A DNA stretch of 64,000 nucleotides, from assembly GCA_964447495.1 (NCBI GenBank), contig CAYUTF010000005.1:2240-66239 (forward strand), written 5' to 3'. Position 1 is the first letter of the stretch. Each line of letters begins with the position of its first letter. Below the pieces are notes generated by a model. That model was not told the origin of the DNA. It saw nothing but the letters and a program-made list of their open reading frames with translations, and did not search any database. Shown piece by piece: positions 17,001 through 53,808 of this stretch. The stretch comes from an uncultured archaeon. GTDB taxonomy: Archaea; Asgardarchaeota; Lokiarchaeia; Sigyniarchaeales; SOKP01. A program made the position numbers and the translations under genes.

Positions 17001-17113
17001 CCAATAGAAGGTGTTCTCTCTACAAGATATACTTTAAATCCTAATTCCGTTAAATCAAGAGATGTTTGAATTCCAGCTATCCCACCACCAATCACCAGAA
17101 CTGAACCTTGCAT
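14003..17113 (-). CDS. hdrA: HdrA-like flavoprotein with duplicated HdrA modules (1036 aa), all-Cys form
   Basis: Two FAD folds ([10 protein letters not shown] and [10 protein letters not shown]), the [11 protein letters not shown] motif, inserted and C-terminal 2x[4Fe-4S] ferredoxin motifs ([44 protein letters not shown]), and an internal HdrA N-domain (VCHCGINIG...[10 protein letters not shown]). Confidence 0.85.
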
Positions 17114-17117
17114 TCTT

Positions 17118-18359: not shown

Positions 18360-18364
18360 GATGA

Positions 18365-19495
18365 TTAACCTTCGATTGTTTTCATAAATTTTTCCCTTCT
18401 GTTATGTTTATTTTGAGAAAAAGCAGCAATGAGTTCCTTCATTTTTTGTTTCCGATCTTCATTAAGATCTAATTTTTTAATTATCCCGCTATTTAATGCC
18501 TTTTCAAATATCTCCTTTCCCTTTTTAGTTCTTGGAATAACAGTAGTATATTTCTCTATTGAGCCGAGCCCTCCAAAAGAAATATCTGAATAAATGTTTG
18601 TAAAGTCTGCGCATGCATTACAGGCGGGACGCATATAGGGTGCTAAATGATTAAAAGGAACATGAATTACCCTGTTCCCTACATTTGGATCCTTTAAGGT
18701 GAAAATTACGTCTTCTTTAATATTTATCTTAATAATATCTCTAAAATTTATGTTAAAATCCTTTTCAAACTTTTTAATTTGGGATTTTTCAAAGAAAAAA
18801 TTTTCATAACAAAATAGACCTAAACATACCTCTATATTTTGCGATGGTGTGACTCCTAAATCTTTCATACACGCAATTGTATAGAGTTGACACGGTGTTC
18901 CTACCACCGCCAGCTTTTTAAATTTATAATGATTCAACTCAGGAATGGAATGAGTATAAGTGCTAAACTTTTGAATTTCATCTAATTGGGGAGTAATATC
19001 TAACTTTGCTCCTGAAGCTTTTAGTAGATCAGATTTACAATCTGCAAAAGTCGCTTCCCTTGAAAATGGAGCTTCGGTTTTCGATACTACCGCACCCTCA
19101 ACCATCTTATTTTTGATTAAAAAGTAAAGGATTGAGTTCACCACACCTCCATCAGTGCCGTACTCTAGGAATTCCTTATCAGTGGCTTGACAAGAATAAA
19201 TATCATCATAGTTTCCTAAAGGCATGGAAGAAAAATCAGTAAATCCATAAGTTTTATTCAGCTGGTCATCTAATATATGAGTTTGAGGACAAATATAATA
19301 ACAGATACCACACTCTAAGCACTTATCTTTATTAATATACACTGGTGGCTTATATTCGTCTTTAAAACCGATAACATCAAATTCTGCTGAACTACAAAAG
19401 CTCACACAGCCTCCACATTCTTGACATATTCCCTTTTCGTGTACCTCTTTTATGAGATCTTCAAAAGTTTTTGTACTCATGATAGATTTATTCAC
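18365..19495 (-). CDS. FrhB/FdhB-family flavin/Fe-S protein (F420-hydrogenase beta-like), paralog 2
   Basis: N-terminal CQECGGCVSFC / CLECGICYYICP, then GTDGGVVNSILYFL, VGTPCQLYT and CNACADFTNIYSDISFGGLG family motifs. It overlaps the upstream frhB-like gene by 8 nt. Confidence 0.75.
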   Translation of the reverse strand: MNKSIMSTKTFEDLIKEVHEKGICQECGGCVSFCSSAEFDVIGFKDEYKPPVYINKDKCLECGICYYICPQTHILDDQLNKTYGFTDFSSMPLGNYDDIYSCQATDKEFLEYGTDGGVVNSILYFLIKNKMVEGAVVSKTEAPFSREATFADCKSDLLKASGAKLDITPQLDEIQKFSTYTHSIPELNHYKFKKLAVVGTPCQLYTIACMKDLGVTPSQNIEVCLGLFCYENFFFEKSQIKKFEKDFNINFRDIIKINIKEDVIFTLKDPNVGNRVIHVPFNHLAPYMRPACNACADFTNIYSDISFGGLGSIEKYTTVIPRTKKGKEIFEKALNSGIIKKLDLNEDRKQKMKELIAAFSQNKHNRREKFMKTIEG

Positions 19496-20996
19496 TTAGA
19501 TTTCTTATTTTATCATAGGGACTCTTACAATTATTTCGTTTAGTACCCCCAATTTTTTCCACTAAAAATAACCCAGGCTTGACTTCTTTGAGGCTTTTAG
19601 ATTCAATATCTCCATTTTTCACTAACTCATTATAGATAGTGTCCGCCTCTTTGGTCCGCGTAATTACTGAAGACCACCCATCTTGAGACCCAATGGAGCC
19701 TACTGAAAAGTCTGCATAATCGGATGTTAAATCCTCACAATAATGGCAACTGTCCCGAGCATATTTCTTTACCTCTTTGAGTGGAACATCTAATTGCTCT
19801 CCAGATTTTAATCGAATGATAAACTTTCCACCTCCAATATTCATCTTAGTCAATTCATTAATATCCTTGTCGAATTGTTCCTTAGCTAGTTGAATGATTC
19901 CCTCATATGGAAATGATTCCATACAGAAGAGCCCTATCTTGTATTTAATATTTTTAAAGAACGGAAGTCCGCTCGGAAAAAGAGTACCTTTCTCTAAAGC
20001 CTTCATCATACAAGGAACCCCTACAAAAGCAATTTTTTCATACTTTTTTGCCTGATCGATGATCGACAAGGACGGAGAATTCGCATATTTCGTGCCCGCC
20101 GTCTTATAGAGTTCCTTCACATTCTCAATAATTACCGGTTCTGGTTTCCATAGTTGATCTGAATGTTGTACTGCAATTACTGCATCAACAAGGTTTTTTT
20201 TCAATAAATATTCGGCGATGGTAGTAACGATCCCTCCATCTTGACGTACTTTTATGATCTCGTCATTCTTTGTGCTTCCCGAATAGGTGCCAATATACCC
20301 TCCAATTTTATCTGACCAATTCAAATTTTTATCTAACTTCTTAATCGCTTCATTCATTTGGTCTATAGAAAAGGAACGAGGGCAGACTGTAAAGCATAAC
20401 CCACACTTCATGCATACATTATCGTCGATTTTAAGCGTATTCGCATCAACCTCGATCGCATTTACAGGACATATGGCAGCACACCAACCGCATTGACAGC
20501 ACGCACCAGCATCATATACGATGGAAACGGGTTCAAAATAGTGTTCAATAAAAGCGGGTTCAAGTTCTTTAACTTGATATCGATAAAAATACTCTTTTAC
20601 CTCGACTTCCTTCTCTTCTCCTTTAATTTTTTTAGTGACCTTTTTGATTTTTACTTCAACAAGTTCCTTTACATATCCCTGCTCTTTTAAGTATATCACA
20701 TCTCGGATAACATTTTCTGGGGGAAATTCCTTGATAACATCCATAATCTCTTCTAAAAATAAGGGTTCTTTGCCTCTTAAATACTCTAAGACGATTTTAC
20801 GCTCCGTTTCAGCATCAACCATAGCATCCAAAATTGCATAGTATTCTTGTTCCCCATATTTTCCTGCTTCAAGAATTTCGTCCTTAGCTTCATAGAAAGC
20901 GCGGATCTGAAAGTTCTTTGACGCTTCATAGGTGGCATCCATCAATTCTTTGGGAGACACCCCTTCAAATAACTTACTATTTACTATTTGAACCAT
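19488..20996 (-). CDS. FrhB/FdhB-family protein with an N-terminal extension of about 150 aa, paralog 1
   Basis: CCQCGWCAAICPVNAI / CMKCGLCFTVCP, VRQDGGIVTTIAEYLL, VGVPCMMKAL, and CHYCEDLTSDYADFSVGSIG. The N-terminal extension has no recognised motif. Confidence 0.75.
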   Translation of the reverse strand: MVQIVNSKLFEGVSPKELMDATYEASKNFQIRAFYEAKDEILEAGKYGEQEYYAILDAMVDAETERKIVLEYLRGKEPLFLEEIMDVIKEFPPENVIRDVIYLKEQGYVKELVEVKIKKVTKKIKGEEKEVEVKEYFYRYQVKELEPAFIEHYFEPVSIVYDAGACCQCGWCAAICPVNAIEVDANTLKIDDNVCMKCGLCFTVCPRSFSIDQMNEAIKKLDKNLNWSDKIGGYIGTYSGSTKNDEIIKVRQDGGIVTTIAEYLLKKNLVDAVIAVQHSDQLWKPEPVIIENVKELYKTAGTKYANSPSLSIIDQAKKYEKIAFVGVPCMMKALEKGTLFPSGLPFFKNIKYKIGLFCMESFPYEGIIQLAKEQFDKDINELTKMNIGGGKFIIRLKSGEQLDVPLKEVKKYARDSCHYCEDLTSDYADFSVGSIGSQDGWSSVITRTKEADTIYNELVKNGDIESKSLKEVKPGLFLVEKIGGTKRNNCKSPYDKIRNLSE

Positions 20997-21130
20997 TGAG
21001 TCTTCATTTTAAATTTTTTTCTTAAAAAATCTAATTTTTACTACTATTTTCCAACTAGCTCCCTCCTGAGCAAGGAGTGTTATCTTATAACCAAAATTTT
21101 CTTATAAGAATCATTCAATGGGAGCTGATA
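20997..21130 (-). promoter_or_regulatory. Candidate SECIS-bearing 3' region of the hdrA-vhuD selenoprotein pair
   Basis: Minus-strand RNA ...CAGCUCCCAUUGAAUGAUUCUUAUAAGAAAAUUUUGGUUAUAAGAUAACACUCCUUGCUCAGGAGGGAGCUAGUUGG... Complementary pairs read directly: AGCUCCC/GGGAGCU, UCUUAUAA/UUAUAAGA (A-rich 11-nt loop, AUGA one nt upstream), and CUCCU/AGGAG. Not folded computationally. Confidence 0.3.
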
Positions 21131-21557
21131 CTAATTCTTTGTTACCTTCTGTCAAATTAATCGGATTGGGACCAATTCTACTAATCTTTTCATACGCATC
21201 TTCAACACTTTTTACTAATTTTTCTGCTTCTGCACTACTACACCAATACATATTCGCTCGTTGATTACCAAAACCTCGTTTTTCAAGTATCCTGTTAGCA
21301 AGATCTATATGTTTTTGAGCTGTGAAATTACCGGCTTTAAATTGACACTCATTAGGTCTTCATCCTACAACCATTACTCCATCTGCACCTGTTTTAATCG
21401 CAAATAAAATATGCTTTACATCAACTCTCCCTGTGCATTTTACTTTGATTATTTTCACATCAGGAGTATATTTAAACCGCGAGACTCCTGCTAAATCTGC
21501 GGCACCATAACCTCATTTTAAGCATGCAAACATGATAATCTTATATTTATGTTCCAT
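21111..21557 (-). CDS. vhuD: VhuD/MvhD-like selenoprotein with two in-frame TGA (Sec) codons
   Basis: Absent from the ORF track. ATG 21557-21555, preceded by GGAGG (21570-21566), overlaps the hdrA stop (AATGGAACATAA). The translation is [46 protein letters not shown]...GADGVMVVG-U-RPNECQF... TGAs at 21515-21513 and 21362-21360 align to Cys in [15 protein letters not shown] and [12 protein letters not shown] of the paralog at 13566..14006. Confidence 0.75.
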
Positions 21558-23499
21558 TTTCTGCGCCTCCTTGTATAATTGCTTCAATTTCAGCATATAA
21601 TTGATAATCCCTATAATACTTTATATCAATTGCTTGAGTTGGACAACAAGATGCACATATACCACATCCGTCGCAATTAATGTCATCAACAACCGCTTTA
21701 TTATCTTTAATAGTTATGGCTCCTTTAGGACATTCCTTTTCACATCGCCCACATGAAATACATAAATCAGGGTTAATTTCAGCAATTATCAATTCAAGAT
21801 CAATTTCACCTGAGGATGTTAGCTCAACTACTTTACTAGCAGCAGCTCTCGCTTGAGATACTGAATAAGCAATATCTTTTGGTCCCTGTGCAAATCCTGC
21901 GATAAATATCCCTTTTGTTTTCGTTTCTTGCGGCATTAATCCAAAATGCGATTCTGTCAAAAAACCATTTTTATCGACATCTAAATTTAGTACTTTGGCA
22001 ATTTGCTGAGTTCCGCGAGAAGGGAGTGCTGCAGTTGATAAGACCACTAAATCTGCATCAATTTTAATAATTTCATCAGTTAGAGAAGAATAAACCCTTA
22101 TTTCAACATTTTTGGTATCAGGGTTTTCTGTAATGCCACCAACTTTTCCACGAATCATCCGAATATCTGAATCTTTTGCCCGTTGGTAATATTCTTCGAA
22201 TCCTTTTTCATTGGTTCTAATGTCAATATAACAGATCGTTATATTAGCGTCGAGTATTTCCTCTTTAAGTAATTTTGCATTTTTGAGAGCCAGCATACAA
22301 CATACTCCGCTACAATAAGTCCTTTCGGTGTCACGGCTGCCAACACATTGGATAAATACAATCTCTTTTGGTTTTTTTAAATCAGATATTCGAGCGATGT
22401 GACCTTCTAATGGACCGTTCGGTGCTAACATTCTCTCAAGTTGGGCTTGATTTATAACATTATCATACTCACCATATCCATACTCACCCATAGGCTCATA
22501 TATGTCCCACCCTGTAGCAATTATTATAGACCCTACTTTAAAATTTACCTCTTCTGGCACTTGGCTAAAATCTATGGCATTTAGCTCACAAACATCAACA
22601 CAACTGAAGCATTCAACACAAGTATCTCTATGAATATCATATAAAAAAGGTACCGCTTGACCAAATGCTATATCAATTGTTTTCCGAACCCCAAGATGTT
22701 CGTCAAAATAATTGGTTATGAACACTGGGCAGACCTCCGAACATGCTCCACACCCATTACAATCATTATTAATGAATCGGGGCATCTTTTCTACCGTGAT
22801 TTCATAATTTCCGACATATCCCTTAACGTTTCTAACAAAACTATAGCTCAATAGTTCTATATTTTCATGACGGTTAACTTCTAACATCTTAGGACCACAT
22901 ATTCAGATGCTACAGTCATCTGTTGGAAATGTTCTGTCCAATTGAGCCATTCTTCCACCAATTGTAGTATTTTTATCAACTAAATATACCTTAATTCCCT
23001 GATTCGCTAAGTCTAAGGCAGCATTCATCCCTGCAATACCTCCACCAACAATTAAACATGCTTTTTCTATTGGAACTGTTCTTATAGGTATTATCTCTAA
23101 AGTTTTAGCTCTTTCTATACCGCTTTTGACTAAAATTTTTGCTTTTTCTGTTGCTTCCTCTTTATCAGCGGTACACCAACTGCAATGTTCTCTTACATTA
23201 ACCATCTGGAAGTAATAGGGGCTTAAATCCGTTTTTGAAATTGAAGCCCGATATATGGGTTCATGTGTCCTTGGAGTTCACGCAGACGCAACTACTCTCG
23301 TTAATTTCTTTTCTTGAATATCTTGGATTATTTCATTTTGTCCACTTTCAGTGCAAAGGAATGCATTAGTTTTGGCAACCACTACGTCATCAAAAGTTTT
23401 AGCAAATTCAACAAGTTCATTACAATCAACTTTACTTCGAATATTTATGCCTCATTGACACGCGTAAAAACCAATCCGATGCTGGGTAGTTTTTTCCAT
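21547..23499 (-). CDS. hdrA: Heterodisulfide reductase subunit A (HdrA) selenoprotein with three in-frame TGA (Sec) codons
   Basis: Track ORFs 21547..22887 and 22903..23205 plus untracked 23206..23499 form one 651-codon frame (ATG 23499-23497, TAA 21549-21547). TGAs fall at 23454-23452 (codon 16), 23280-23278 (codon 74) and 22905-22903 (codon 199). They align to Cys of the 14003..17113 paralog: YACQ-U-GINI vs LVCH-C-GINI; VASA-U-TPRTHE vs [10 protein letters not shown]; DDCSI-U-ICGPKM vs [12 protein letters not shown]. Confidence 0.85.
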
Positions 23500-28069: not shown

Positions 28070-31000
28070 TTGAAAATGTATAAATATACAAAAAATAAAA
28101 AATTGAAATCGAAAAGAATTCTATTAATTATATCAGTACTATTCATTCTCCCCATAGTTATCAATTTTCTTGAAATGGATTTAGGATTTTACAATTATGT
28201 AGATGATAATATGGAGAATCTTGATAATGATTATCTTAGAAATTCTAATGTTTATAGTAGAGACTTTTCTGGAGATGGATGGGACATATTTATTTCTGGA
28301 GATTACGCATATATTGCTGATGGAAGCTTATACGGAGGATTGGTGGTGATTGATATCTCTGATCCTACTAACCCAGGTTCTCCGATATATGAGGCCACGG
28401 ATGGAAATGCTTTTGGAATTTATGTAAGTGGGGACTATGCTTATATGGGTGTTGGAAGTGTTGGATTGGCTGTGATCGATATCTCTAACCCTACTAACCC
28501 AGGATCTCCGATATATAAACCTATGGATGATTTCGCTAATGGACTTTATGTGAGTGGGGATTATGCATATGTCGCAGATGGAAGTGCTGGATTGGCAGTG
28601 ATCGATATATCAAATCCCACTAATCCAGGACTGCCTGTACATGAACCTACGAGTGATTATGCCTATGACGTTTATATACGTGGGGATTATGCTTATGTCG
28701 CAGATGGAAGTGCTGGATTGGCAGTGATCGACATATCAAATCCTACTAATCCGGGAACAGCAGTACTTGAAAATACTAGTGGATATTCGATGGCGGTTTA
28801 CGTGGAAGGAGATTATGCTTATGTGGCGGATTCAGGGAGTGGATTAGCAATCATTGATATTTCAGATCCTACTAATCCAGGAACACCAGTTTATGCTAGT
28901 ACGGATGGATCTGCCTATAGTGTTTATGTAGATGGGGATTATGCTTATGTGGCAGATAATCATAAAGGATTAGCAGTCATTGATATTTCAGATCCAATAA
29001 ATCCAAGTAAAATTGCTCAAGGATCTCTAGATAAAAATGTATATTCAATATGCATAGATGGAAATTATGCTTTCTTGGCTGGTAGTTATAAGTTTTACAC
29101 GATCGAGATTTCAGAACTTATTACGCCTCTAGAACTATGGTGGAATCAAGATACATCAGGCAATTCGCAAGGAGTATTTGTAAGTGGAGATTATGCCTAT
29201 GTTGCCGACGGAGCTAATGGATTAGCAATCTTTGATATTTCAGATCCTACTACTCTAGGATCATCTGCGTATAGCAATACTGCAGGAGATGCGGAAGATG
29301 TAGTGGTGAGTGGAGACTATGCATATGTTGCGGATGGTGGTGGTGGATTAGCGGTGATCGATGTTTCTGATCCTACTACTCCCGGAACCTCTATTCGTAG
29401 GGATACAACAGGCGATTCAAGAGGTATATTTGTGAGTGGAGATTACGCCTATATTGCTGATGGAGGGAGTGGATTAGCAATTATCGATATTTCTAATCCA
29501 ACCAGTCCAGGCGCTCCCGTTTACAAGGATGATGGTTATTTAACCAAATCTGTGTATATAGAAGGTGATTATGCTTATCTTTCTGCTGGAAGTGGAATAT
29601 TAACCATTGATATTTCTGATCCTACAACCCCGGGAGCATCAGTTTATTTATCTCTCGGAGGAGATGCTAGAGATATATATGTAAGGGGAGATTATGCCTA
29701 TCTTGTAATTTACAGTGATATAGTTACAGTTGATATTTCGGATCCCACTAATCCCACGTTGTTAGATAAAGAGCAGATATATCATACTGTTCCTGAAGGT
29801 ATATTTGTAAGCGGAGAATATGCGTATACCGCAGAAGATTATGGAAGTATGGGAGGGTATATAAAAATCTGGGATATTTCTGATCCTTCCCATATTTCAA
29901 TGGAAGATTCACTATACATTGGAGATACATATGGAGGAGATGGAGCGTTTGAATCATTCGTGACTGGAAACTATATTTATGTTGCAGACTCTGGTTCAGG
30001 ATTACTTGTGTGTGAGGTTCGTGAAAGGGTTGACACAAAAGACCCCGTAATTACACAATCCCCTAGTGATAAAATCATCGAAGCAGGTTATACAGGCGAA
30101 ACATTGTCTTGGAGAGCAACAGATACCAATCCAAATACATATACTATTGAACTTGAAGGAGTTGGTACTGTTGCCGGTCCAACAGCTTGGTTAAGTGGAT
30201 CCTTGGTAACTTATAATATCCCGGATGGATTATCGGTAGGAGAATATGATTACACTATTACTTTTACTGATGATCATGGATTTTATGCTGCAGATACAGT
30301 AAAAGTAACTGTTCAAGATACGGAAAAACCTGTGTTTACAGAATTTCCATCAGATCTTAAAATTTTAGAAGGCTATACTGGAATTAGTTTTTCTTGGAAT
30401 GCAACCGATGCCAATCCTGATACTTATATCATTGAACTGGGAGGAACAGGTATCGTTGCCGGTCCAACTTCTTGGTCAAGTGGGGTTGCCATTACATATA
30501 ATGTTCCCGATGGATTATCATTAGGGTATTATTTCTATAGAATCAACATTACCGATGAATATGATCATTTTTCCACAGCTACAGTGAAATTAACGGTTTA
30601 CGAACCAGATGATCCCATTATTACGGATAGTCCAATCGATCTTGTAGTTGGACCTGTTTATACAGGATTGAATTTTTCATGGACGGCTACGGAAGCCAAT
30701 CCTGACACTTATACTATCGAACTCCAAGGAGCTGGAATTATTACTCTTCCAACATCTTGGTCAAGTGGAGTTGCCGTTACGTATGATATTCCTGACGGAA
30801 TGAAAATAGGGGAACATTTCTTTACAATCAACTTTACGGATGAATTTGATAACTATGCCACAGACACTGTAAAGCTTACTATTCAAGACAATGCCCCTCA
30901 AATCACAAATGCTCCAGAGGATATGGTTATAATGACTGGTTATACTGATGTAGAAATTTCCTGGACAGCAACCGATGAAGAAGATCCAAACACATATACT

Positions 31001-31570
31001 ATTGAACTTGCGGGTAGTGGAATTGTTGTTGGTCCAACATCGTGGTCAAGTGGAGTAGCGGTTACATACGATATTCCTGATGGACTATCTTTAGGAGATC
31101 ATTTCTATACGATCAACTTTACGGATGAAACAAGTAATTTTGTCACTGATCAGGTAAAAATTACAGTACAAGAAGATAGCATTGATCCTGTAATTACTTT
31201 TGCTCCAGAAGATTATGGCTGTTTTACTGGATATACAGATGTGTGTTTCTTTTGGATTGCAACGGATGCTCATCCAGCTACATTTACTGTAGAACATCAA
31301 GATCATGGCATCGTAGCAGGACCAACTCCTTGGACGAGTGGAAATAATGTGAGTTATACCATTCCAGAAGGGCTATCAGTGGGAGAACACTTTTTTACCA
31401 TTAATTTTACTGATGTTGCTGGAAATTTTGCCACGGATACAGTAAAAATCACAATTATTGAGGAAACACCTGTAGAACCTCCTCCAGCAATTCCTTTCGG
31501 AAGTTCATTTTTGGTTTTCATGACAATTTCCATTATTGGAGTAGTAGTGTTCCAGAAAAGGAAAAAATAA
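28070..31570 (+). CDS. Large surface protein: N-terminal TM/signal, about 14 LVIVD beta-propeller repeats, six Ig-like (HYR-like) domains, C-terminal TM anchor
   Basis: Reiterated [26 protein letters not shown] units (LVIVD repeat). These are followed by six modules of about 94 aa (DPVIT..P.D....GYTG..(L/F)SW.ATD.NP.TYTIEL.G.G.VAGPT.W.SG...TY.IPDGLS.G.H.(Y/F)TI.FTD). The C-terminus is [26 protein letters not shown]. Confidence 0.8.
   Translation: [1166 protein letters not shown]
28247..30025 (+). repeat. In-frame tandem coding repeats (LVIVD units, about 126-nt period)
   Basis: For example, 28556-28630 and 28682-28756 differ at only 4 of 75 nt. Confidence 0.8.
30040..31470 (+). repeat. In-frame tandem coding repeats (six Ig-like modules of about 280 nt)
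   Basis: The periodicity is visible in the translated protein, and each module ends in VK(V/L/I)T(V/I). Confidence 0.7.
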
Positions 31571-31807: not shown

Positions 31808-33676
31808 TTGGATAAATTGGAGGAAAAAACTGATCTCAAAAAATCAGAATTAGGCTCCTTATTTTTCTATAAAGCTGTAGCATTAGTAAGGAGGGGAAAT
31901 TATCCAGAGACATTGAAATATGCTAAAAAAGCATATCATGTTGTTCCTAAAGAAGCGTTAAGTCCTCGAATGGTTGAAATTTTAGCGATGATGGGTCTTG
32001 CTTCTTGTTGGATAGGAAATTTTGAAATAGGATATCAATATCTAGATGAAGCTGAGCAGAAATTAAATAACCTAATTGATATTTCAGAAAAAAGACGGAT
32101 TCTTCTGGAAACAATGATATATGCTGATAGGAATTGTGGTTATATGCAACAAGGAAAAAGCGATCTATTCTATGAATCCGCAATGAAGCTTTCAAGTCTA
32201 AGTGAACAGATTAACGACAAATATGTATTGGCTCAAATCTATTATCAATTAGGATCGCTTTATACCTTTATTAGAATTGATATAAAGTTAGCTATAAAAT
32301 ATTCTTTCAAATGTCAACCTCTCGCAGAAGAGTTGGGAAATAATACTTTTATTGCTCTCAATTTAGTAACTATTGGTGCGATTTATGTTATAACAGGTGA
32401 TTTAGAAAAAGCGTTATTTTATCACAAGGAAGCATTGAAAAAAGCTGATATTATCATGATCAAAATGTCTATTTTTAATAATATTTCAATGATATATAGT
32501 CAAAAAGGAGATTTAGATAAAGCTTTAGAATCGCTTGAAAAAGCTTTTGAATTAGCCAATAAAGTTAAAGCCCCATATATTTTGAGCACCACATTGGCAA
32601 GTATGATCGAAGTATTAGTTTTAACAGGCAAAAACGAAAGAGCAAGAGAGCATTTAATTACATTGAAAGAGATTGCTAAAAATGAGAAAAGTCAATTTAC
32701 GGAATTACTTGCCCATTACTGTGAAGGATTTATCTTAAAAACAAAGAGTCGAATTCAAGATCGTGCTAAAGCACAAAATATCTTCGAAGAAATAGTACAG
32801 CAAAACGTGATTTCTGGAGAATTGACAATGAAAGCTCTTATAAATCTGTGTGATTTATTAGTAGAGGAATTTCGCTTTACTTCTGAATTGGAAATATTAG
32901 ATGATCTGAGTATATTACTTGAAAAATTAATAACTATTGCAAAAAGTCTAAATTCTTTTTGGATTTTAACTGAAACTTATCTATTACAAGCAAAATTTGC
33001 TTTATTAAAAGGAGATTTGAAGAGTGCTAGGAAAAAATTAACTGAGGCTCAAGATCTCGCCGAGAAAAATAATCTTAAATTATTAGTTGGTAAAATATCA
33101 TATGAGCATGATAAAATATTACGAAATTTGAAGATGTGGGAATCACTTATAGAAAAAGATGTTCCTTTAAATGAGCGAATCGAGTTAGCTGAATTAACCG
33201 TACATATTGAAAATATGCTTCTTAATCGGAAGGTTTCTCTTGAAATTTCTGAAGAAGACCCCGTAATAATCTTAATCATTACAGAAGGAGGCACACCCAT
33301 ATTTTCACATTCATTTATTAAAGAAAAAACATTTGAAACCCAAATTATTGGTGGATTTCTAACAACAATAGATTACTTTATTAAAGAGACTTTTTCTCAA
33401 GGATTAGATCGAGCAGTTTTCGGAAATTATACACTCTTAATGAAATACATTCAACCTTTTTACATAACCTATATCTTTAGTGGTAATTCTTATTATGCCC
33501 TTCAAAGAATTAATTATTTTACTGAAAATTTGAAAAATAAAGATATAATATGGGAAAAATTAATAGTTAATTGTGAAAAGGGTAAAACTATTCGCCTTAA
33601 TGATATTCCTTTACTGGAAACATTGATAAGTAATACTTTTATATACAAAAATGTAGAATTAAATCAACTAATATAA
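31808..33676 (+). CDS. TPR-repeat protein with a C-terminal roadblock/longin-like alpha-beta domain
   Basis: TPR-like helices run through about aa 1-450. The C-terminal segment PVIILIITEGGTPIFSHSF...QIIGGFLTTIDYFIKETF...AVFGNYTLLMKYIQPFYITYIFSG..YYALQRINYFTENL has a strand-helix-strand-strand-helix pattern. The frame is open from 31736 with no canonical start before TTG 31808. Confidence 0.5.
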   Translation: MDKLEEKTDLKKSELGSLFFYKAVALVRRGNYPETLKYAKKAYHVVPKEALSPRMVEILAMMGLASCWIGNFEIGYQYLDEAEQKLNNLIDISEKRRILLETMIYADRNCGYMQQGKSDLFYESAMKLSSLSEQINDKYVLAQIYYQLGSLYTFIRIDIKLAIKYSFKCQPLAEELGNNTFIALNLVTIGAIYVITGDLEKALFYHKEALKKADIIMIKMSIFNNISMIYSQKGDLDKALESLEKAFELANKVKAPYILSTTLASMIEVLVLTGKNERAREHLITLKEIAKNEKSQFTELLAHYCEGFILKTKSRIQDRAKAQNIFEEIVQQNVISGELTMKALINLCDLLVEEFRFTSELEILDDLSILLEKLITIAKSLNSFWILTETYLLQAKFALLKGDLKSARKKLTEAQDLAEKNNLKLLVGKISYEHDKILRNLKMWESLIEKDVPLNERIELAELTVHIENMLLNRKVSLEISEEDPVIILIITEGGTPIFSHSFIKEKTFETQIIGGFLTTIDYFIKETFSQGLDRAVFGNYTLLMKYIQPFYITYIFSGNSYYALQRINYFTENLKNKDIIWEKLIVNCEKGKTIRLNDIPLLETLISNTFIYKNVELNQLI

Positions 33677-33779: not shown

Positions 33780-34316
33780 ATGAGTAAAGGAGAATATCAA
33801 TTCAAAATTTCAGTAGTAGGAGATGGAGCGGTAGGCAAAACTTCTCTTATTAAAATGTTTACAAAAGGAATATTTGAAAAAGATTATATCAAAACTATTG
33901 GCGCGCAATTTTCACGATTTGAAAAAGTAATAGAGAATGATAGCGTAAATCTAGTCTTCTGGGATATCGCTGGTCAAGAAGATTTTGATTTTCTTCAGCC
34001 ACTATTTTATAAAGAGAGTAAAGCTTCTATTGTAGTCTATAGTCTTGAAGATAATGATTTAGGTAGAGAGAGTTTTAATCATATAAAGAACTGGGTTCAA
34101 AATCTAAGAAAATATTGCGGAGAAATCCCCCTGATTTTATTTGCTAATAAGGTAGATTTAATAGAGGAAAATGAATTAAATTTACTGGATATAAAGAACA
34201 TAGCTGAAAAACATAATTTTTTTAGCTTTTCCTTGACTTCTGCGAAAACAGGCCAGGGAGTTAATGAAGCATTTAATCTAATCATCCATGAATTATATAA
34301 TAAGTATAGAGAGTAA
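33780..34316 (+). CDS. Rab/Ras-like small GTPase
   Basis: G1 GDGAVGKTS, switch I YIKTIGAQF, G3 WDIAGQE, G4 NKVDL, G5 TSAKTG. There is no C-terminal prenylation Cys. Confidence 0.9.
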   Translation: MSKGEYQFKISVVGDGAVGKTSLIKMFTKGIFEKDYIKTIGAQFSRFEKVIENDSVNLVFWDIAGQEDFDFLQPLFYKESKASIVVYSLEDNDLGRESFNHIKNWVQNLRKYCGEIPLILFANKVDLIEENELNLLDIKNIAEKHNFFSFSLTSAKTGQGVNEAFNLIIHELYNKYRE

Positions 34317-34547: not shown

Positions 34548-36143
34548 ATGACGAATCCTAACTTCCCTCCCGAAGAGATATTCGAAAACAGAGCTGAATT
34601 TGGTTTATACAATTCAATAAGGATGCTAACCAAGATTATTGAGTCATCAGATGATAGTAATAAAAGAAAAAGTGCGATAAAGTATTTAGGATTAGTAAGT
34701 AAAGAAGCACCAGCATATAAAGAAGAGTGTTTTGATAGTATAGAAAACATTTTAATCTCGGAAGAGAATATTGAAATTAAATGCGAAGCGGCTAAGGCTT
34801 TAGGAAAATTAAAACTGAAAAAGGCTTTAAAACCTTTACTATGGATTTTTGATAAATCCGTAGATAACAACGATTTAAGGCTTTCAATATTAAAAGCGAT
34901 CTATAAAATTACATTTGAAGATGCTGAAATTGAACTCTTCATAAAAGAATTAGATTCTTCTCATATTGAAATTAAGGAATATGTGAAAAATCAGTTACTT
35001 ATCCTCAATCCTGAAGTATTGGTAAAAAAATTAATTAATTCTTTACCTAATAAAAATCTTTCAAATAAAAATAAAGCGGAGATAATAAAGTTAATTGCTT
35101 TTGAAATTTCGAGTATAAATTCATCCTTTGAGGGTTCAAGTTTCATAGAAGTAAAGTATCCCGAAATTCTCTCAGAATTAATAAACCAAAAAGAAGTATT
35201 GCTGACAGAAATAACTCAAATATTGAAGACAGATGATAAAAGTCTACTTGAATCATCAATTTCGATTCTTAGTATACTTAAGGATAATATTAAAGAAGAT
35301 ATTATTAAGTTACTCCTTACAGATAATTTCATCATAAAAAAAAATGCAATTACAATTTGTGGTAAACTTCAATTAATTGAGGCTGCAGACTTAATAGTTC
35401 AAAACTTGGATAATCTCTATAATGAGGTAAGCATAGCTTCAATCGAGGCATTAGGAGAGATTGGTGATCTTACAACTGTACCTGATTTACTTGATATTCT
35501 AAATGTTGAAGATATCAGTTTTGAATATTCTGATATTGATATGAAATTCCAAATTATGGATGCTGTAAAAAAAATTTATTTAAAGCATGATCAAATATCC
35601 TATAAGGACTTATATCAATCTTTAGAAAAGGAAAATGACACTATCAGGGCGAGCATCGCATTTATTTTAGGAGAGATAGGAAGAGAAGAATTTATACAAC
35701 CATTAATACGACTATTGAAGATTAAAAACGTAGATGTTAGAAAAAATATAATAATAGCTCTAGGAAAAATAGGACATATCGATGCTTTAGATAATTTAAT
35801 TGATATTATTAATGATGATAGTGCATATTGGCTTATTAAAAAAGTAACTACTGATGCTATATATAATATCTTTCAACAAAATTCGTATAAGATTGATAAA
35901 AATACTAAACAATTGAAATCGGAATTAAATAAAAAAATAGCTATTATTATTGAGCATTTAAGAGAATCAGAGAAGGAAAATTACAAAGTTAAATTAGGTT
36001 TAATAAAATTCTTAGAAACTTTCGGAGATACAAAAGCTTTAGATGCTTTATTGAGAAGAGTTAATGATTTTCATAGAGTAGTTAGAATTTATGCTTCTAA
36101 TGCGATTAAAAAAATCGAGGAAAGATTGGAATTAGGCAATTAA
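34548..36143 (+). CDS. HEAT-repeat (PBS-lyase HEAT-like) protein
   Basis: Recurring units such as EAAKALGKLKLKKALKPLL, SIEALGEIGDLTTVPDLLDIL, IAFILGEIGREEFIQPLIRLL, and IIALGKIGHIDALDNLI. Confidence 0.7.
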   Translation: MTNPNFPPEEIFENRAEFGLYNSIRMLTKIIESSDDSNKRKSAIKYLGLVSKEAPAYKEECFDSIENILISEENIEIKCEAAKALGKLKLKKALKPLLWIFDKSVDNNDLRLSILKAIYKITFEDAEIELFIKELDSSHIEIKEYVKNQLLILNPEVLVKKLINSLPNKNLSNKNKAEIIKLIAFEISSINSSFEGSSFIEVKYPEILSELINQKEVLLTEITQILKTDDKSLLESSISILSILKDNIKEDIIKLLLTDNFIIKKNAITICGKLQLIEAADLIVQNLDNLYNEVSIASIEALGEIGDLTTVPDLLDILNVEDISFEYSDIDMKFQIMDAVKKIYLKHDQISYKDLYQSLEKENDTIRASIAFILGEIGREEFIQPLIRLLKIKNVDVRKNIIIALGKIGHIDALDNLIDIINDDSAYWLIKKVTTDAIYNIFQQNSYKIDKNTKQLKSELNKKIAIIIEHLRESEKENYKVKLGLIKFLETFGDTKALDALLRRVNDFHRVVRIYASNAIKKIEERLELGN

Positions 36144-36310: not shown

Positions 36311-37807
36311 ATGACTGAAAACCAACCAAAAGAAAAGCAAGAATCCTCTCAATATGAATATTCATTTAATTATATTCAGAAGAAGTTAGAAGGGAAGAAA
36401 GATAGTCTCGGTATGCTCATGAAGGAGATCATCCGAACGGGGATATGTACTGAATGTGGCACATGTGCTGCGGTCTGTCCTGTCTTAGAATGGGATCATG
36501 AGCTAGGAGAACCTAAACTGGTAGGAAAGTGTACGGGATGTGGAATATGTTATAATCAATGTCCACGAACTATAACAGATCCGATACAACTCATGGGAGA
36601 CTTCAAAACAGGTTATGTATCGAACACAAATATTCCCGAAGTCATTGGAGGTCAAGATGGGGGCACTGTGACTTCATTGTTATGCTATTTATTCGATGAA
36701 CATTTAATAGATGCAGCAATCGTTACAATGAAAGATCCTGAAAATCCATGGAACCCAGTTGCACAGATCATAACAACAAAAGAAGATGCTATTAAATCAT
36801 CAGGTTCGATTTATTCACATTCCCAAACTGTTGAGGCTCTTATGGATGCGATTAGACAGGATTACAGGTCGATTGCTTTTGTAGGAACTCCCTGTAATAT
36901 TGATGCCGTTGATAAAATGATGAGTTCTCCTGCAGGAATGCTAAAATACTTCATGAGAGCACATGTATTAAAGTTAGGGCTTTTTTGCATGGATTCATTT
37001 GCACCTGAAGCATTATATTCATTTTTTGATAAAGAAGGAGTTGATCTTAAGCAAGTAAAAAAAATGGATATTAATAAAGGTAAATTTCATTTATACTACG
37101 ATCCGGATAAAGAACCTGTTAAATCATATACCATTAAACAATTAGATAAATTTAAGTCATCGAGTTGTAATTTTTGCACCGATTTAACCGCTGAAAATTC
37201 GGATATCTCTGTTGGATCAGTAGGAAGCGGGCCAAATAAGAATACAGTATTTGCTAGAACCGGGATTGGGGCTGAAATTATTGAGGATGCCGCGAAAAAA
37301 GGATACCTAAAAATTGAACCTTTTAATGCTATAAACCTTAATGCTGTATTATTTTTAGCCAAGCTTAAAAAAGTTTCTCAATATAATATACAGAAACGTA
37401 AAGTATTCATCGTTAAAGATACTATTGAAGAAGAACCACGTATTAAAACAAAACCAGAGGCTGAGAAGTCGAAAACAACGCCAGAATTAGGAGCAAGGAA
37501 ATTTTTACGAGTTACAAAGGATATTAACGAGGAAGAGAATGTTTTAAATATATCTATAACGAATTCTGTTGGCTATGTTTTAGAGAAATTAAAAATAAGA
37601 ATAGTAACCGTAGAAGATTTATTTGAAAGTCGACCATGGATCACGACAATAAAAGAATTATTTCCATACGAAACCATTGAAATTGGATACCCTTTAGAAG
37701 AAAAAGAAGGGAAGATTATTTATGGGAATGTTTTAGTTGAAGCCTCCACAGATGATTTTGGAAAAATATTCTCAAAAACTTTTAAATTAGTACCTAAAGA
37801 AGTATAA
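36311..37807 (+). CDS. FrhB/FdhB-family protein, paralog 3, with a unique C-terminal extension of about 140 aa
   Basis: CTECGTCAAVCP / CTGCGICYNQCP, GGQDGGTVTSLLCYLF, VGTPCNIDAV, CNFCTDLTAENSDISVGSVG. A K/E-rich linker follows, then an unrecognised beta-rich tail. Confidence 0.7.
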   Translation: MTENQPKEKQESSQYEYSFNYIQKKLEGKKDSLGMLMKEIIRTGICTECGTCAAVCPVLEWDHELGEPKLVGKCTGCGICYNQCPRTITDPIQLMGDFKTGYVSNTNIPEVIGGQDGGTVTSLLCYLFDEHLIDAAIVTMKDPENPWNPVAQIITTKEDAIKSSGSIYSHSQTVEALMDAIRQDYRSIAFVGTPCNIDAVDKMMSSPAGMLKYFMRAHVLKLGLFCMDSFAPEALYSFFDKEGVDLKQVKKMDINKGKFHLYYDPDKEPVKSYTIKQLDKFKSSSCNFCTDLTAENSDISVGSVGSGPNKNTVFARTGIGAEIIEDAAKKGYLKIEPFNAINLNAVLFLAKLKKVSQYNIQKRKVFIVKDTIEEEPRIKTKPEAEKSKTTPELGARKFLRVTKDINEEENVLNISITNSVGYVLEKLKIRIVTVEDLFESRPWITTIKELFPYETIEIGYPLEEKEGKIIYGNVLVEASTDDFGKIFSKTFKLVPKEV

Positions 37808-37918
37808 ATCTCAAAAATTTTTAATAAAGTTAAATGAAATAAAATATTATAAAATTATAATAATAGAATGAGAAATTAAAAAAAGAGACATTTTAATCAT
37901 GAAAGAAATAAATAAGAG

Positions 37919-38839
37919 GTGCTCCCGTACTTGAAAATTGCATTGATAGGGCTTTCAGGTTGTGGTAAAACAAGCCTCTACTCTGTTGCTTTTGCGGAAA
38001 AAAGTCCAGAAGACACCAAAAAGTTTAGTCCAACAATTTTATATGAAACTCGAAGGCATCCCTTTTTAGGATTACAAGTTGGCATATTTGACTTTGGAGG
38101 GCAAGAACAATATAGAAAAGAGTATATGGAAAAGCCAGAAGTGTTTAGAGGTACTGATATCTTAATTCCTATTGTGGATTTACATGATCCTAAATCTTTT
38201 AAGCAAGCAAAGGAGTATTTTGAAGGGTTATTAAATATTTATCGAAAAAATAATGAAAAGCCGAAAATCTTTCTATTCTTGCATAAATATGACGTTGAGA
38301 ATTATCAAAAAGAACTTCTCGATACAAACGTTAAAATGGCTAAGGAAGCTTTATTAGATTTGTTCAAGGATTATGAGTTTGATTACAAGTTAACGAGTAT
38401 TTATTTACAAGATGAATTAGCTAAAATTTTCAGGGATATTTTAATATCTTCCTATTCAGAGCTAAAAACTCATGTTGAGAAAGCAGAGAAGCAGTTAGAA
38501 GAAATTAAAGCAAAAATTATTATTTCTGATGTATCGGGAAATGTCATAGTACATAATGTTCAAGGCGTGAGTAGTGGATTAACATTAAGGGGAGATTTAA
38601 GAGACTTTATCAATGCTTGCAATACAGTCCGAGAAAATCTTTTTATGTCAGATTCTGCTGAGTTTAAAGGGAGAAATGATGATGGAAAAGAGATTGAACT
38701 CTACATCTTCAAGTATATCATTTCTGTTCTTGTAATGAAATCTGGGGAGATTGAACGTGAATCTCAAGATAAACTTAATATGTTATTGAATGACATGAAA
38801 TTATTTGCTGATTTAATAATTTCAGCCCACACTGAGTAG
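37919..38839 (+). CDS. Rag/Gtr1-like GTPase with a C-terminal roadblock domain
   Basis: G1 GLSGCGKTS, G3 DFGGQEQY, and an atypical G4 HKYD (compare HKMD of Rag GTPases). TSIYLQDELAKIFRDIL resembles the Rag TSIWDETLYKAW segment. The C-terminal roughly 120 aa show an alpha-beta roadblock pattern. Confidence 0.7.
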   Translation: MLPYLKIALIGLSGCGKTSLYSVAFAEKSPEDTKKFSPTILYETRRHPFLGLQVGIFDFGGQEQYRKEYMEKPEVFRGTDILIPIVDLHDPKSFKQAKEYFEGLLNIYRKNNEKPKIFLFLHKYDVENYQKELLDTNVKMAKEALLDLFKDYEFDYKLTSIYLQDELAKIFRDILISSYSELKTHVEKAEKQLEEIKAKIIISDVSGNVIVHNVQGVSSGLTLRGDLRDFINACNTVRENLFMSDSAEFKGRNDDGKEIELYIFKYIISVLVMKSGEIERESQDKLNMLLNDMKLFADLIISAHTE

Positions 38840-38891: not shown

Positions 38892-39533
38892 TTAGGTATA
38901 GAATATTCTATAAAGTTCGTCATAAAGTCTTGCAAGCTTAGAAATTACATCGGGATTATTTTGTTGTAAATAATATGAGAGATAACTTGATAAACCTTGT
39001 GGATTTTTAATCCATTCTAAAAAAGCCTCAACTTCTGCTTTTATTAAAGGATCGATATTAATCTCGCCTACTTTTGATAACCCATTATAACTTTTAGCTA
39101 AATTCTCCGCTTCTTCAGTATCGACATCCGTTTCAATAAATGTAGATTTTGATCCTTTTGATATCATAGCAGCAGCCCTTGCTACAGCAGGATAAGCTAA
39201 ATGAAACCATCCTTTCGCTTTAGGACTGATTTGAGCAATCATGTATTTATCTCCATCGGGTGTAGCTGCCCCAATAAGATGCCCCTTATTATGCCGATTG
39301 GTTGCAATGAATCGTTCTGGTGCCATTTGAACAATCGAATAGCGTATACTTGCTACTGTAACTGATTGAGCAGAATTACTTGTCCAAGATGCTAATAGAT
39401 TTTTTATATCGCTTTTAATATTCCAATTCTTTGTTGAATATAGCATTTTTCCATTGTTTGCAATAATTGCTATAGATTTTGCATCTTTATAATGATGCTG
39501 TAATTTGCTGACCACATTTTTAAAATCTGCCAT
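38892..39533 (-). CDS. Profilin-like protein with a C-terminal extension of about 80 aa
   Basis: The profilin-type pattern SIAIIANNGKMLYSTKNWNIKSDIKNL ... VASIRYSIVQMAPERFIATNRHNKGHLIGAATPDGDKYMIAQ parallels eukaryotic AAIIGHDGSVWAQS ... [24 protein letters not shown]. The first roughly 130 aa match profilin length. Confidence 0.55.
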   Translation of the reverse strand: MADFKNVVSKLQHHYKDAKSIAIIANNGKMLYSTKNWNIKSDIKNLLASWTSNSAQSVTVASIRYSIVQMAPERFIATNRHNKGHLIGAATPDGDKYMIAQISPKAKGWFHLAYPAVARAAAMISKGSKSTFIETDVDTEEAENLAKSYNGLSKVGEINIDPLIKAEVEAFLEWIKNPQGLSSYLSYYLQQNNPDVISKLARLYDELYRIFYT

Positions 39534-39556: not shown

Positions 39557-40912
39557 TTATTTACTTATATCTATCCAATTATCGATTTTTTCTAAAAATT
39601 CATATTTTTCTTTGGCACTCAATCCTTTATTAAGTTGAGCACGTTGATATATATTTGCTAATTTACTCATTTCCCATAAGAAGTTAATATGGAATACTAT
39701 AGATTTTATATAATCACGTCCTATTTCCAATGCTTTTCCAATTGAGCGTACATCGTAATCCGCTTCTACAATTTTTTTCAAAGTCGATAAAGTATCAACT
39801 ATATTTGTCATAGGAATCTGTGGAAGGGGTTTTATCTTCACAGTTGGACGCTCTATAAATCTGGGTTCAAAATAATCTCGTTTTAATTCTTCTTCTGCCA
39901 TATCTGGCTCTACATGCTGTGGCTGATATAATTTGTCTTTAATGATCGATACAGAATCTTCTAACTCTTTTTGGGATTGTCGTTTAAACTGATTGGGCCA
40001 ATTTACAATACTATCGATGTATTTTTCTGCAGCTCTTAAAATCGACACTTTTTTTCCGTTTTTATTGGTATTGTTTACTTGATAAATTGGCAAATTTGGT
40101 ATCTTTATTTTTAACCATATATTAGCTTGATCAATTAATGAATACAGGTGCATCGGATCAAATTCAATCGTAGAATATACATCCTTCAGTATGTTTAAGT
40201 TCTCATTAATTGACTGGATTTCTGAATCGGTGAAATGATCAATAAGAAATCTATAAAGTCTCAATGAGATTGAATTGATTCCTGCAGTTGGTTCTATATA
40301 TTTCATTTTTAAATTAGATTCCATTCCATCGGAAATTAATATAGTATTGAAATAATCCCAATGAGCGCTTAAAATCATATGATCGGTTTTTCTAAGTTGA
40401 TACGACGTAGGATCACGGATTTTCTCCATAAAATCTAAGAGAATGTCCTTATAGGGAATAAAAAGATTTCTCACTAAGGTCCCTTCAATAAAGGTCTTTT
40501 TATTTGGTGATTTAAAAGACAAATCAATTGGTAGTTTAATCACATCTTCAGCAATAATCACATCGGAATCATTTTGTAATGTAAGATTTCTTGATGTTGC
40601 TAAACGATCGTATACAAAATCAGAGAGCATTAATCCCGTTAACAATCTACTATCTGTTATATATCTCCCAGATTGAACTTCGAATTTTGTATAATAATAT
40701 CCTAAACCCATAAGATAATATATTATTCCTTTTGGAGTGTGAACTCGTCGTTCCATCCCACCAAAAAAGATTACTAAATCCTGAGAAATTTTTACAACAT
40801 CATGATGAACATAAGTACCCAATGTGGGATATCCTAGAAGCTTACCCCAACTAGGGATTACCAGAAAGATGTTATTTTTAATTAAATCTCCTTTTATAAT
40901 TGCTTTTGACAT
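39557..40912 (-). CDS. Hypothetical protein, apparently co-operonic with the profilin-like gene
   Basis: 451 aa with no recognised motif. Its stop is 23 nt upstream of the profilin-like start on the same strand. Confidence 0.4.
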   Translation of the reverse strand: MSKAIIKGDLIKNNIFLVIPSWGKLLGYPTLGTYVHHDVVKISQDLVIFFGGMERRVHTPKGIIYYLMGLGYYYTKFEVQSGRYITDSRLLTGLMLSDFVYDRLATSRNLTLQNDSDVIIAEDVIKLPIDLSFKSPNKKTFIEGTLVRNLFIPYKDILLDFMEKIRDPTSYQLRKTDHMILSAHWDYFNTILISDGMESNLKMKYIEPTAGINSISLRLYRFLIDHFTDSEIQSINENLNILKDVYSTIEFDPMHLYSLIDQANIWLKIKIPNLPIYQVNNTNKNGKKVSILRAAEKYIDSIVNWPNQFKRQSQKELEDSVSIIKDKLYQPQHVEPDMAEEELKRDYFEPRFIERPTVKIKPLPQIPMTNIVDTLSTLKKIVEADYDVRSIGKALEIGRDYIKSIVFHINFLWEMSKLANIYQRAQLNKGLSAKEKYEFLEKIDNWIDISK

Positions 40913-52494: not shown

Positions 52495-53154
52495 TCAATG
52501 AATTGCTGAAACTAATTGGTTCTTGTATAGTTGCTTAAATACTAAACTCAAAATCTCTTCGAATGAATCTAAGATTCCCTCTCCGTTAAGAGCAATGGTG
52601 TTTTTGATATTAATATTCTTGTATTTATAATAATTAATTTGATCCAGGAATACTTTTGGATTGTATTTACCTTGTACGTCCTGTTTGTTAAATGCGATAA
52701 TTTTTGGGATATCTTCAAATTTGTCTTCATAAAAAGAGCATAATTCATTCCAAGAGGTTAAAGTTCGGTTGAAGGCCTTTTTTTGAGAATCTGCGACAAA
52801 GATTATCCCATCAATTGCTCTTAGGGTAATTGGGCGGGTCACAATATAGAAGTCCTGACCTGTGGTGCTGTAAATATGAATTTTTAATAACCATAGTTCA
52901 TTTTGAAAAGAAATACTACCATAATCAAAAAATAAAGTACGACGTACTGAACTTTCTATTGATTCTAGTTTATTTTCCATTCCAAAATGCTTAAAAAGGG
53001 ATTTAATAGAAGTTGTTTTCCCTGATAAAGCAGGACCGTAATAGACTATTTTAATCTGTATATATTTTTCTAACCAATCAATAATCATAATCAAATAATA
53101 TCTATTTGTTATAATTCTAAAAATAGGTTTATAAAAGACTATTTTTTCAGTCAA
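52495..53154 (-). CDS. MglA-like small GTPase
   Basis: KIVYYGPALSGKTTSIKSL (MglA: KIVYYGPGLCGKTT), RTLFFDY, YSTTGQDFY, DGIIFVADSQ, FNKQDV. The true start is probably an internal Met (MIIDWLEKY...). Confidence 0.8.
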   Translation of the reverse strand: MTEKIVFYKPIFRIITNRYYLIMIIDWLEKYIQIKIVYYGPALSGKTTSIKSLFKHFGMENKLESIESSVRRTLFFDYGSISFQNELWLLKIHIYSTTGQDFYIVTRPITLRAIDGIIFVADSQKKAFNRTLTSWNELCSFYEDKFEDIPKIIAFNKQDVQGKYNPKVFLDQINYYKYKNINIKNTIALNGEGILDSFEEILSLVFKQLYKNQLVSAIH

Positions 53155-53430: not shown

Positions 53431-53808
53431 TTAGAGTAAAATTTTGTTATTGTCGACTTTACATGATAATAGAGAGCGTAAAACTAAAATTTCGATCTCT
53501 TTTTTAAGTGTAGCCTCATCAATTTCTAAAGATTCTTCTTCGCTCAATAATTTAAGTAATTCTTCATAGCTGATTTCTTTCTTCTCATTTGAAATGTAAA
53601 AGATTGATTTTAATATCAATTGCTGATTATATAAAGAACGGACATTTGAATCCAGCTGATATAACTTATGAGTTAAATTGTAATTATAACTACTTTCCTT
53701 TTCAATGACTTTTAATTTATCCAATATCATCATTGCTCTTTTATAATGTTCTTTTAGCATTAATTCTTGTACTTCATTTAGCTGGTTGATAAATTCTTGG
53801 GAGTTCAT
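53431..53808 (-). CDS. Hypothetical helical protein with a PCI-like winged-helix C-terminus
   Basis: The C-terminal ISYEELLKLLSEEESLEIDEATLKKEIEILVLRSLLSCKVDNNKIL resembles the WH end of PCI domains. This is pattern level only. Confidence 0.3.
   Translation of the reverse strand: MNSQEFINQLNEVQELMLKEHYKRAMMILDKLKVIEKESSYNYNLTHKLYQLDSNVRSLYNQQLILKSIFYISNEKKEISYEELLKLLSEEESLEIDEATLKKEIEILVLRSLLSCKVDNNKILL

Follow-up and report, generated by a model that had tools for sequence, protein, structure and literature searches.

Does a single gene of an Asgard archaeon encode a Rag-type GTPase that carries a roadblock domain of its own, and with what would that domain pair? This question is raised by a gene on the forward strand of contig CAYUTF010000005.1 from an uncultured member of the Lokiarchaeia, of which we analyzed a stretch of 64 kb (referred to as the window; G+C content approximately 31%). 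In eukaryotes, the amino-acid branch of TORC1 signaling is formed by the Rag GTPases; archaea, to our knowledge, have neither TOR nor TORC1. We consider it likely that the gene encodes a Lokiarchaeia Rag-family (Gtr1/RagA-like) GTPase in which a G domain is followed by a C-terminal roadblock domain, a putative switch that would self-associate through the latter. The gene and its parts are given below, with residues numbered in the 302-amino-acid form that begins at TTG 37931 unless the 306-amino-acid form is named.

37931..38839, forward strand: Rag-like GTPase gene, 302 amino acids plus stop, likely start TTG 37931 (list of open reading frames (ORFs), ortholog N-termini, start-codon census)
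37931..38446, forward strand: G domain, residues 1-172 (Pfam PF04670, phmmer against the PDB, alignment with reference GTPases, neighbor-joining tree)
37949-37975, forward strand: G1 motif GLSGCGKTS, residues 7-15
38030-38035, forward strand: G2 motif PT, residues P34-T35
38090-38104, forward strand: G3 motif DFGGQ, residues 54-58
38282-38293, forward strand: G4 motif HKYD, residues 118-121
38393-38404, forward strand: G5 motif TSIY, residues 155-158
38447..38836, forward strand: predicted C-terminal roadblock domain, residues 173-302 (AlphaFold2 model and Foldseek)

G domain, C-terminal domain, and conservation

By its sequence, the G domain belongs to the Rag/Gtr type, with catalytic motifs that read as intact: the P-loop, the switch I threonine, the glutamine of DxxGQ, HKxD, and TSIY. 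The best Pfam family was Gtr1_RagA (PF04670), with 84.1 bits (E=1.3e-23) at a cut-off of 22, and the same protein was also matched by Arf (42.8 bits), Ras (42.1), and SRPRB (32). The Gtr1_RagA match spans residues 6-202 of the 306-amino-acid form and thereby extends past the G domain to α1 and β1 of the C-terminal domain. A phmmer search of the PDB was headed by Gtr1 of S. pombe (2.6e-17), the Lokiarchaeota entry 8yl2 (4.2e-17), human RagA (4e-16), and Gtr1 of S. cerevisiae (4e-15), with Arl3 (3e-7), RagC/D (6e-7 to ~1e-6), Arf1 (5e-5), and Gtr2 (6e-5) far lower. Expressed in bits, Gtr1 and RagA scored 59-66, Arl3 33, RagC 28-31, and Arf1 26. MglA gave no match in this PDB search, and M. xanthus MglA scored 0.7 bits against the G domain.

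The motifs point in the same direction. HMMER alignments place HKYD opposite HKMD of RagA and Gtr1 and HKVD of RagC, and TSIY opposite TSIW of RagA and TSIY of RagC. We also aligned 50 G domains with MAFFT, including RagA, RagC, Gtr1, Gtr2, MglA, Sar1, ARL3, and ARF1 as references, each of which matched the PDB end to end at more than 2.1 bits per residue. In this alignment, HKxD and TSI[YWF] are common to the eukaryotic Rags and all Asgard Rag-like proteins, whereas Arf, Sar, MglA, and Rab have NKxD and different G5 motifs instead. The protein and the Rags also have in common an insertion of three residues in switch II relative to Arf. A neighbor-joining tree of the G domains (Kimura distances, 200 bootstraps) united the Asgard Rag-like proteins with RagA/Gtr1 and RagC/Gtr2 in a clade with 70% bootstrap support, outside of which fell Arf/Arl/Sar, the Rab-like and MglA-like GTPases of the window, and MglA, the outgroup. 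Support was 73.5% for the eukaryotic Rags together and 99.5% for the orthogroup of the window protein, which forms a separate lineage and is an ortholog of neither RagA/B (Gtr1) nor RagC/D (Gtr2). The original prediction had read a Rag/Gtr1-type G domain from HKYD and TSIY; the Gtr1_RagA score, the motif alignment, and the 70% clade bear this out, and the phylogeny that it had called for places the orthogroup with the Rags and Asgard Rag-like proteins, outside Arf/Sar and MglA.

It had also assigned the protein a C-terminal roadblock domain of its own, and structure modeling agrees. From an alignment of 40 sequences, AlphaFold2 gave a model with a mean pLDDT of 90.1 and a pTM of 0.84, in which DSSP assigned helices to residues 176-191, 221-238, and 276-301 and strands to residues 195-200, 204-208, 243-248, 254-260, and 264-270. 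Residues 176-301 of the model therefore follow the order α-β-β-α-β-β-β-α, which is the roadblock topology. When the model was searched against the PDB with Foldseek, ranks 1-35 were all full-length Rag/Gtr chains (best E 5e-18, 300-313 aligned columns), two crystallized Lokiarchaeota Rag-like GTPases among them. These full-length matches had query-normalized TM-scores of 0.60-0.69, while matches to G domains only (Arl1 and the nucleotide-binding domains of RagC/D) had 0.43-0.49. As the G domain, with 172 of the 302 residues, could by itself give a TM-score of at most 0.57, the C-terminal domain must have been superposed too. The model thus supports a two-domain protein in which the G domain is joined to a roadblock fold made up of the C-terminal ~130 residues.

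The orthogroup is well delimited and highly conserved. The protein shares 82-94% identity with more than 120 database clusters, of which all the named ones come from metagenome-assembled genomes (MAGs) of Lokiarchaeia/Promethearchaeota. When 1.84 billion cluster representatives were searched exhaustively with HMMER, 1052 matched at E<=1e-3 and only seven at E<=1e-30; the orthogroup (representatives with 62% and 59% identity, together with fragments) is sharply set apart from paralogs that match in the G domain only, at ~30-38% identity. We further scanned one genome per GTDB species and obtained 100 relatives, the best 80 of which have 80-94% identity with one locus per assembly and are the orthologous loci counted below; MK-D1 is not among these 80. 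Mean column entropy over 124 orthologs was 0.44 in the G domain and 0.51 in the C-terminal domain, where residues 202-238 (β2 through the loop to α2) are near-invariant and form the most conserved part. Judging by these alignments, both domains are under strong purifying selection.

Within the wider orthogroup, a 59% identical relative (P0122, locus L086) has degenerate motifs, with DLENQ for DFGGQ and HKND at G4, and has no FrhB-like neighbor (see below). It may be a pseudo-GTPase offshoot.

Several results weigh against the reading of a Rag-type protein with a self-associating roadblock domain. The isolated C-terminal domain (125 amino acids) matched nothing in Pfam, Robl_LC7 included, at E<=10, and its BLAST matches among 150 diverse relatives were confined to the orthogroup. 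Comparison by hhalign with eukaryotic Rag C-terminal roadblock domains (CRDs) and with the C-terminal domains of Asgard paralogs gave P of 0.007-0.09, which is not significant. Because these sequence-level searches were negative, the roadblock call depends on one AlphaFold2 model and on Foldseek. The tree, built from distances and moderately supported, does not fix the position of the orthogroup among the Asgard paralogs, and the orthogroup is sister to neither RagA/B nor RagC/D in it. As for self-association, the second crystallized Lokiarchaeota Rag-like protein (8zla) is monomeric.

Proposed self-association and competing explanations

MglB, LC7, LAMTOR2/3, and the Rag CRDs all dimerize through α2 and β3. 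Based on such roadblock proteins and on the precedent of LokiRagO, whose PDB entry 8yl2 is titled 'homo tetrameric RagA-like small GTPase from Asgard Lokiarchaeota (LokiRagO)' and contains GTP, we propose that the C-terminal domain self-associates and acts as a platform. The gene appears to be transcribed from its own promoter, and its product would serve as a GTP/GDP switch; the roadblock domain would mediate self-association, most likely as a homodimer or a higher homo-oligomer as in LokiRagO, and might also be a platform for partners, with the nucleotide state of the G domain controlling the binding of effectors. By this analogy, we give a homo-oligomer an even chance. After a smaller share for the heterodimer considered below, the remainder goes to a monomer or some other arrangement.

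Three other genes of the window are relevant to the alternatives.

31808..33676, forward strand: TPR protein with a predicted C-terminal longin-type domain, residues 471-622 (AlphaFold2 and Foldseek)
33780..34316, forward strand: Rab-like GTPase (Rab23, Rab21, and Rab5 at 1e-31 to 1e-27)
52495..53154, reverse strand: MglA-like GTPase (E=2.2e-25 against MglA of M. xanthus; Pfam label Arf/Roc)

Two of the competing explanations would place the protein in another family. Public records name its orthologs 'ADP-ribosylation factor-like protein', 'GTPase SAR1 family protein', or 'hypothetical protein', and a GTPase of the Arf/Sar family would agree with these names, with the Pfam matches to Arf and SRPRB, both of which are also above their thresholds, and with the Arf-like 'PT' of switch I. 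Such 'Arfl' proteins have, however, been excluded from Arf (PMC11914678). In the present protein, the score for Gtr1_RagA is double that for Arf, G4 is HKYD and not NKxD, and G5 is TSIY and not CAT or SAL. The N-terminal amphipathic helix is absent, as the protein begins at β1 in both the AlphaFold2 model and the ortholog N-termini, the ~130-residue roadblock domain is extra, and the G domain lies outside the Arf/Arl/Sar clade, all of which makes membership of Arf/Sar highly improbable. Another possible template is MglB, which is a roadblock-fold GTPase-activating protein (GAP) of a prokaryotic small GTPase. The gene could accordingly encode a fused module of the MglA/MglB type, with the roadblock domain serving the attached G domain as a GAP or other regulator, either in cis or across a dimer, and the conserved β2-α2 segment could then face the G domain. 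We regard this as improbable given the score of 0.7 bits between the G domain and MglA, the presence of a true MglA-like GTPase elsewhere in the window, and the superposition of the full-length model on Rag chains, domain arrangement included, with TM-scores of up to 0.69.

The other two explanations accept the Rag-type protein and give its roadblock domain a different partner. As in eukaryotes, it could be one half of an obligate heterodimer whose other half is a Rag-like paralog encoded at an unlinked site of the same genome. Such paralogs abound (332 clusters at 50% identity with E<=1e-10, nearly all of those examined looking Asgard), one related MAG (locus-tag prefix GF311) encodes both an ortholog (P0085) and a 415-amino-acid paralog (P0285), and an operonic pair of MK-D1 has been predicted to heterodimerize (PMC10933270). 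However, the original prediction had noted a single Rag-like gene, and this is true of the 64-kb window, where phmmer against all six-frame ORFs recovered no second one, and none lies beside the ortholog in any locus with genes listed. Nor did BLAST or hhalign detect similarity between the C-terminal domain and its counterparts in the paralogs, and LokiRagO is homo-oligomeric, so that we consider a heterodimer rather unlikely. The original prediction had further described the tail of the TPR protein as roadblock-like and had offered it as a pairing partner, to which a small alpha/beta platform domain of the roadblock/longin superfamily, encoded 4 kb upstream on the same strand, lends some appeal. 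Neither the fold nor the pairing was supported. The tail (residues 471-622) has no match in Pfam or among PDB sequences, and its AlphaFold2 model, built from a 33-sequence alignment and of moderate confidence (pLDDT 77, pTM 0.75), has the order β-β-α-β-β-β-α-α. Its best Foldseek match was AP2 sigma2 (E 1.2e-4, TM 0.59-0.62, ~148 columns), followed by zeta-COP, sedlin, VAMP7, and Sec22b, while the roadblock proteins MP1/p14 aligned over only ~109 columns with a TM-score of 0.42. According to the model, the tail is a longin-type domain and not a roadblock. The TPR gene occurs in only five of the 80 orthologous loci and the Rab-like gene in four, neither at a fixed position; the TPR gene is missing from loci L001 and L003, and in the window it lies 104 nt upstream of the Rab-like gene. 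Given this lack of synteny with the Rag-like gene and the adjoining Rab-like GTPase gene, a pairing of the TPR protein with the Rag-like protein is very unlikely indeed. The Rab-like GTPase would be the more natural partner, and the two may form a GTPase/regulator pair.

Start codon, probable promoter, and gene neighborhood

For the Rag-like gene itself, the ORF list and its translation give 37919..38839 on the forward strand, a mechanical ORF of 306 amino acids initiated at GTG 37919, and the complementary strand is packed with stop codons. Two further features lie at and upstream of the start.

37916..37921, forward strand: Shine-Dalgarno-like GAGGTG, 9 nt 5' of the TTG start (read from the sequence)
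37826..37842, forward strand: conserved A/T-rich intergenic motif AAAGTTAAATGAAATAA, ~90 nt 5' of the TTG start in the window

The orthologs are mostly 302 amino acids long, and the N-terminus of most is MKI(A/S)L, at the start of which ATG, TTG, or GTG was found in 51 of 79 orthologous loci. GTG 37919 itself falls within the ribosome-binding-site-like GAGGTG, and the orthologous upstream regions carry GGTG or GGAG at the same place. From the ortholog lengths and N-termini, the start-codon census, and the position of GAGGTG 9 nt upstream, we conclude that the true start is probably TTG 37931 (302 amino acids) and not GTG 37919. An exact copy of the motif AAAGTTAAATGAAATAA occurs only once in the window. 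Of 79 orthologous upstream regions, 48 contain a relaxed version, at a median of ~56 nt 5' of the start. The motif is probably the archaeal promoter (B-recognition element (BRE)/TATA region) of the Rag-like gene itself, in which case the adjacency of this gene to its upstream neighbor need not mean co-transcription.

That neighbor and two other genes discussed below are the following.

36311..37807, forward strand: FrhB/FdhB-family iron-sulfur protein, 498 amino acids, the conserved upstream neighbor (Pfam and NCBIfam)
34548..36143, forward strand: PBS-lyase-type HEAT-repeat protein, 531 amino acids (Pfam HEAT_2; PDB matches to alphaRep/HEAT only)
53431..53808, reverse strand: conserved 125-amino-acid ORF, family unassigned, near the MglA-like gene

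In the FrhB-like protein, which is of the F420/ferredoxin type, a 2x[4Fe-4S] domain at the N-terminus is followed by an FrhB core and then by an unusual beta-rich extension at the C-terminus (~residues 400-498). In 74 of 80 orthologous loci, its gene immediately precedes the Rag-like gene in the same orientation, separated from it by a median of 80 nt, and it is present in 60 of the 63 loci that have enough upstream DNA (~95%). At the locus of the 62% identical ortholog (L084), it is again directly upstream, with a gap of 96 nt, and the remaining neighbors there (Snf7, acyl-CoA dehydrogenase, and MoeA) differ from those of the window. Two further loci were checked, and neither P0129, a paralog, nor the degenerate P0122 has an FrhB-like neighbor. 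The FrhB-like and Rag-like genes thus make up a conserved gene pair without a known rationale. On the basis of gene order, the FrhB-like protein and the orthogroup may be linked in function, and a Rag-type switch that reads or controls redox or energy state can be imagined, although we hold this coupling to be a speculative and doubtful one. It is drawn from gene order, and the apparently separate promoters of the two genes speak against it. If true, it would make the protein a prokaryotic forerunner of Rag nutrient sensing that is homo-oligomeric and operates without Ragulator or TOR.

FrhB-family proteins are also encoded elsewhere in the window. A heterodisulfide-reductase/MvhD-type cluster on the reverse strand (13566..23205) contains FlpD/MvhD, a 1036-amino-acid HdrA-like flavoprotein, and a CCG-domain HdrB/C-like protein, together with two further FrhB-family paralogs and a polyferredoxin. 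At its edge, a 100-amino-acid ORF (22903..23205, reverse strand) looks like a detached N-terminal FAD-binding fragment.

Among the other genes, the one for the HEAT-repeat protein is a frequent upstream neighbor, found at a distance of up to 6 kb in 41 of the 53 loci with enough DNA. A Pfam match of this protein to Rap_GAP (E=0.0078, residues 433-522) is probably spurious, as the PDB search gave HEAT and alphaRep proteins only. No gene for a stand-alone roadblock, longin, LAMTOR-like, or Ragulator/EGO-type protein was found in the window by Pfam among ORFs of at least 90 amino acids. The 125-amino-acid ORF near the MglA-like gene was considered as a candidate roadblock or MglB partner, but it has no supporting Pfam match and no roadblock signature, and its sequence looks mostly helical; the same pair of genes also occurs in loci L001 and L003. 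The TPR/Rab-like block, along with an LVIVD-repeat gene (28070..31570), is absent from these two syntenic loci and looks like a variable insertion. Directly downstream of the Rag-like gene and convergent to it are ORFs of 213 amino acids (38892..39533, reverse strand) and 451 amino acids (39557..40912, reverse strand), which have no Pfam match and are found in only 11-13 of 80 orthologous loci.

Relation to known Rag and roadblock systems

The class to which this protein belongs has already been described in Asgard archaea, and it is not a new kind of system. Liu et al. counted RagA-like GTPases among the abundant eukaryotic signature proteins of Asgard archaea (bioRxiv 10.1101/2020.10.19.343400), and Tran et al. 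(2024) reported Rag-like GTPases of MK-D1 ('Ca. Prometheoarchaeum syntrophicum') that are fused to roadblock and/or longin domains (PMC10933270). The latter study noted that such fusions are often annotated as Arf and that the GTPase-roadblock architectures carry the switch II insert, and its AlphaFold2 models predicted homo- and heterodimers of Asgard Rag-like proteins through their roadblock domains (PMC10933270). Asgard 'Arf-like' proteins have likewise been found to fall near Rag and outside Arf (PMC11914678). The use of Asgard Rag-like proteins as evidence for a pre-eukaryotic origin of the Rag machinery is already established in public sources (PMC10933270; bioRxiv 10.1101/2020.10.19.343400; PDB 8yl2, 8zla).

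What is new here is the high conservation of one orthogroup, with at least 80% identity in at least 80 Lokiarchaeia genomes and with Arf- or SAR1-like labels in public records, and the FrhB-like gene directly upstream of it almost everywhere, which provides a concrete and testable lead to function and the sole conserved one. Being conserved, present once per genome, intact in its motifs, and modeled with confidence, the orthogroup is a well-defined experimental candidate. For annotation, both the family name and the start codon can be corrected.

Eukaryotic Rags are the best matches of the protein in both sequence and structure, although identity in the G domain is only ~30-35%. The likeness is greatest to RagA/B and Gtr1, with RagC/D and Gtr2 more distant, and extends to the order of G domain and then roadblock domain, HKxD, TSI[WY], the switch II insertion, and the absence of a lipid-modification motif. 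In contrast, the CRDs of eukaryotic Rags have no sequence likeness to the C-terminal domain that hhalign could recognize, and neither a paired paralog nor a single-roadblock gene of the Ragulator/EGO type was found in the window by phmmer and Pfam. The MglA-MglB system also combines a prokaryotic small GTPase with a roadblock-fold domain, but these are two separate proteins and the GTPase is of another family (0.7 bits).

LokiRagO (8yl2) comes from the same phylum and has the same domain order and the highest TM-scores among the PDB matches (0.67-0.69; phmmer 4.2e-17), but it is a different paralog, with 21-23% identity over the structural alignment, and in the tree it goes with P0222 and not with the orthogroup of the window. 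LokiRagM, whose PDB entries 8zla and 9m28 are titled 'monomeric Rag-like small GTPase' from Asgard Lokiarchaeota, is a Lokiarchaeon protein with a similar Rag-like G domain (phmmer E=1.2e-12). It is, however, also a different paralog, with a length of 385 amino acids, a whole-chain TM-score of 0.45, and a root-mean-square deviation above 14 Å. Our literature searches found no paper on the LokiRagO and LokiRagM structures. The Rag-like GTPase-roadblock proteins of MK-D1 are of the same class as the window protein in their architecture, their switch II insert, and their annotation as Arf.

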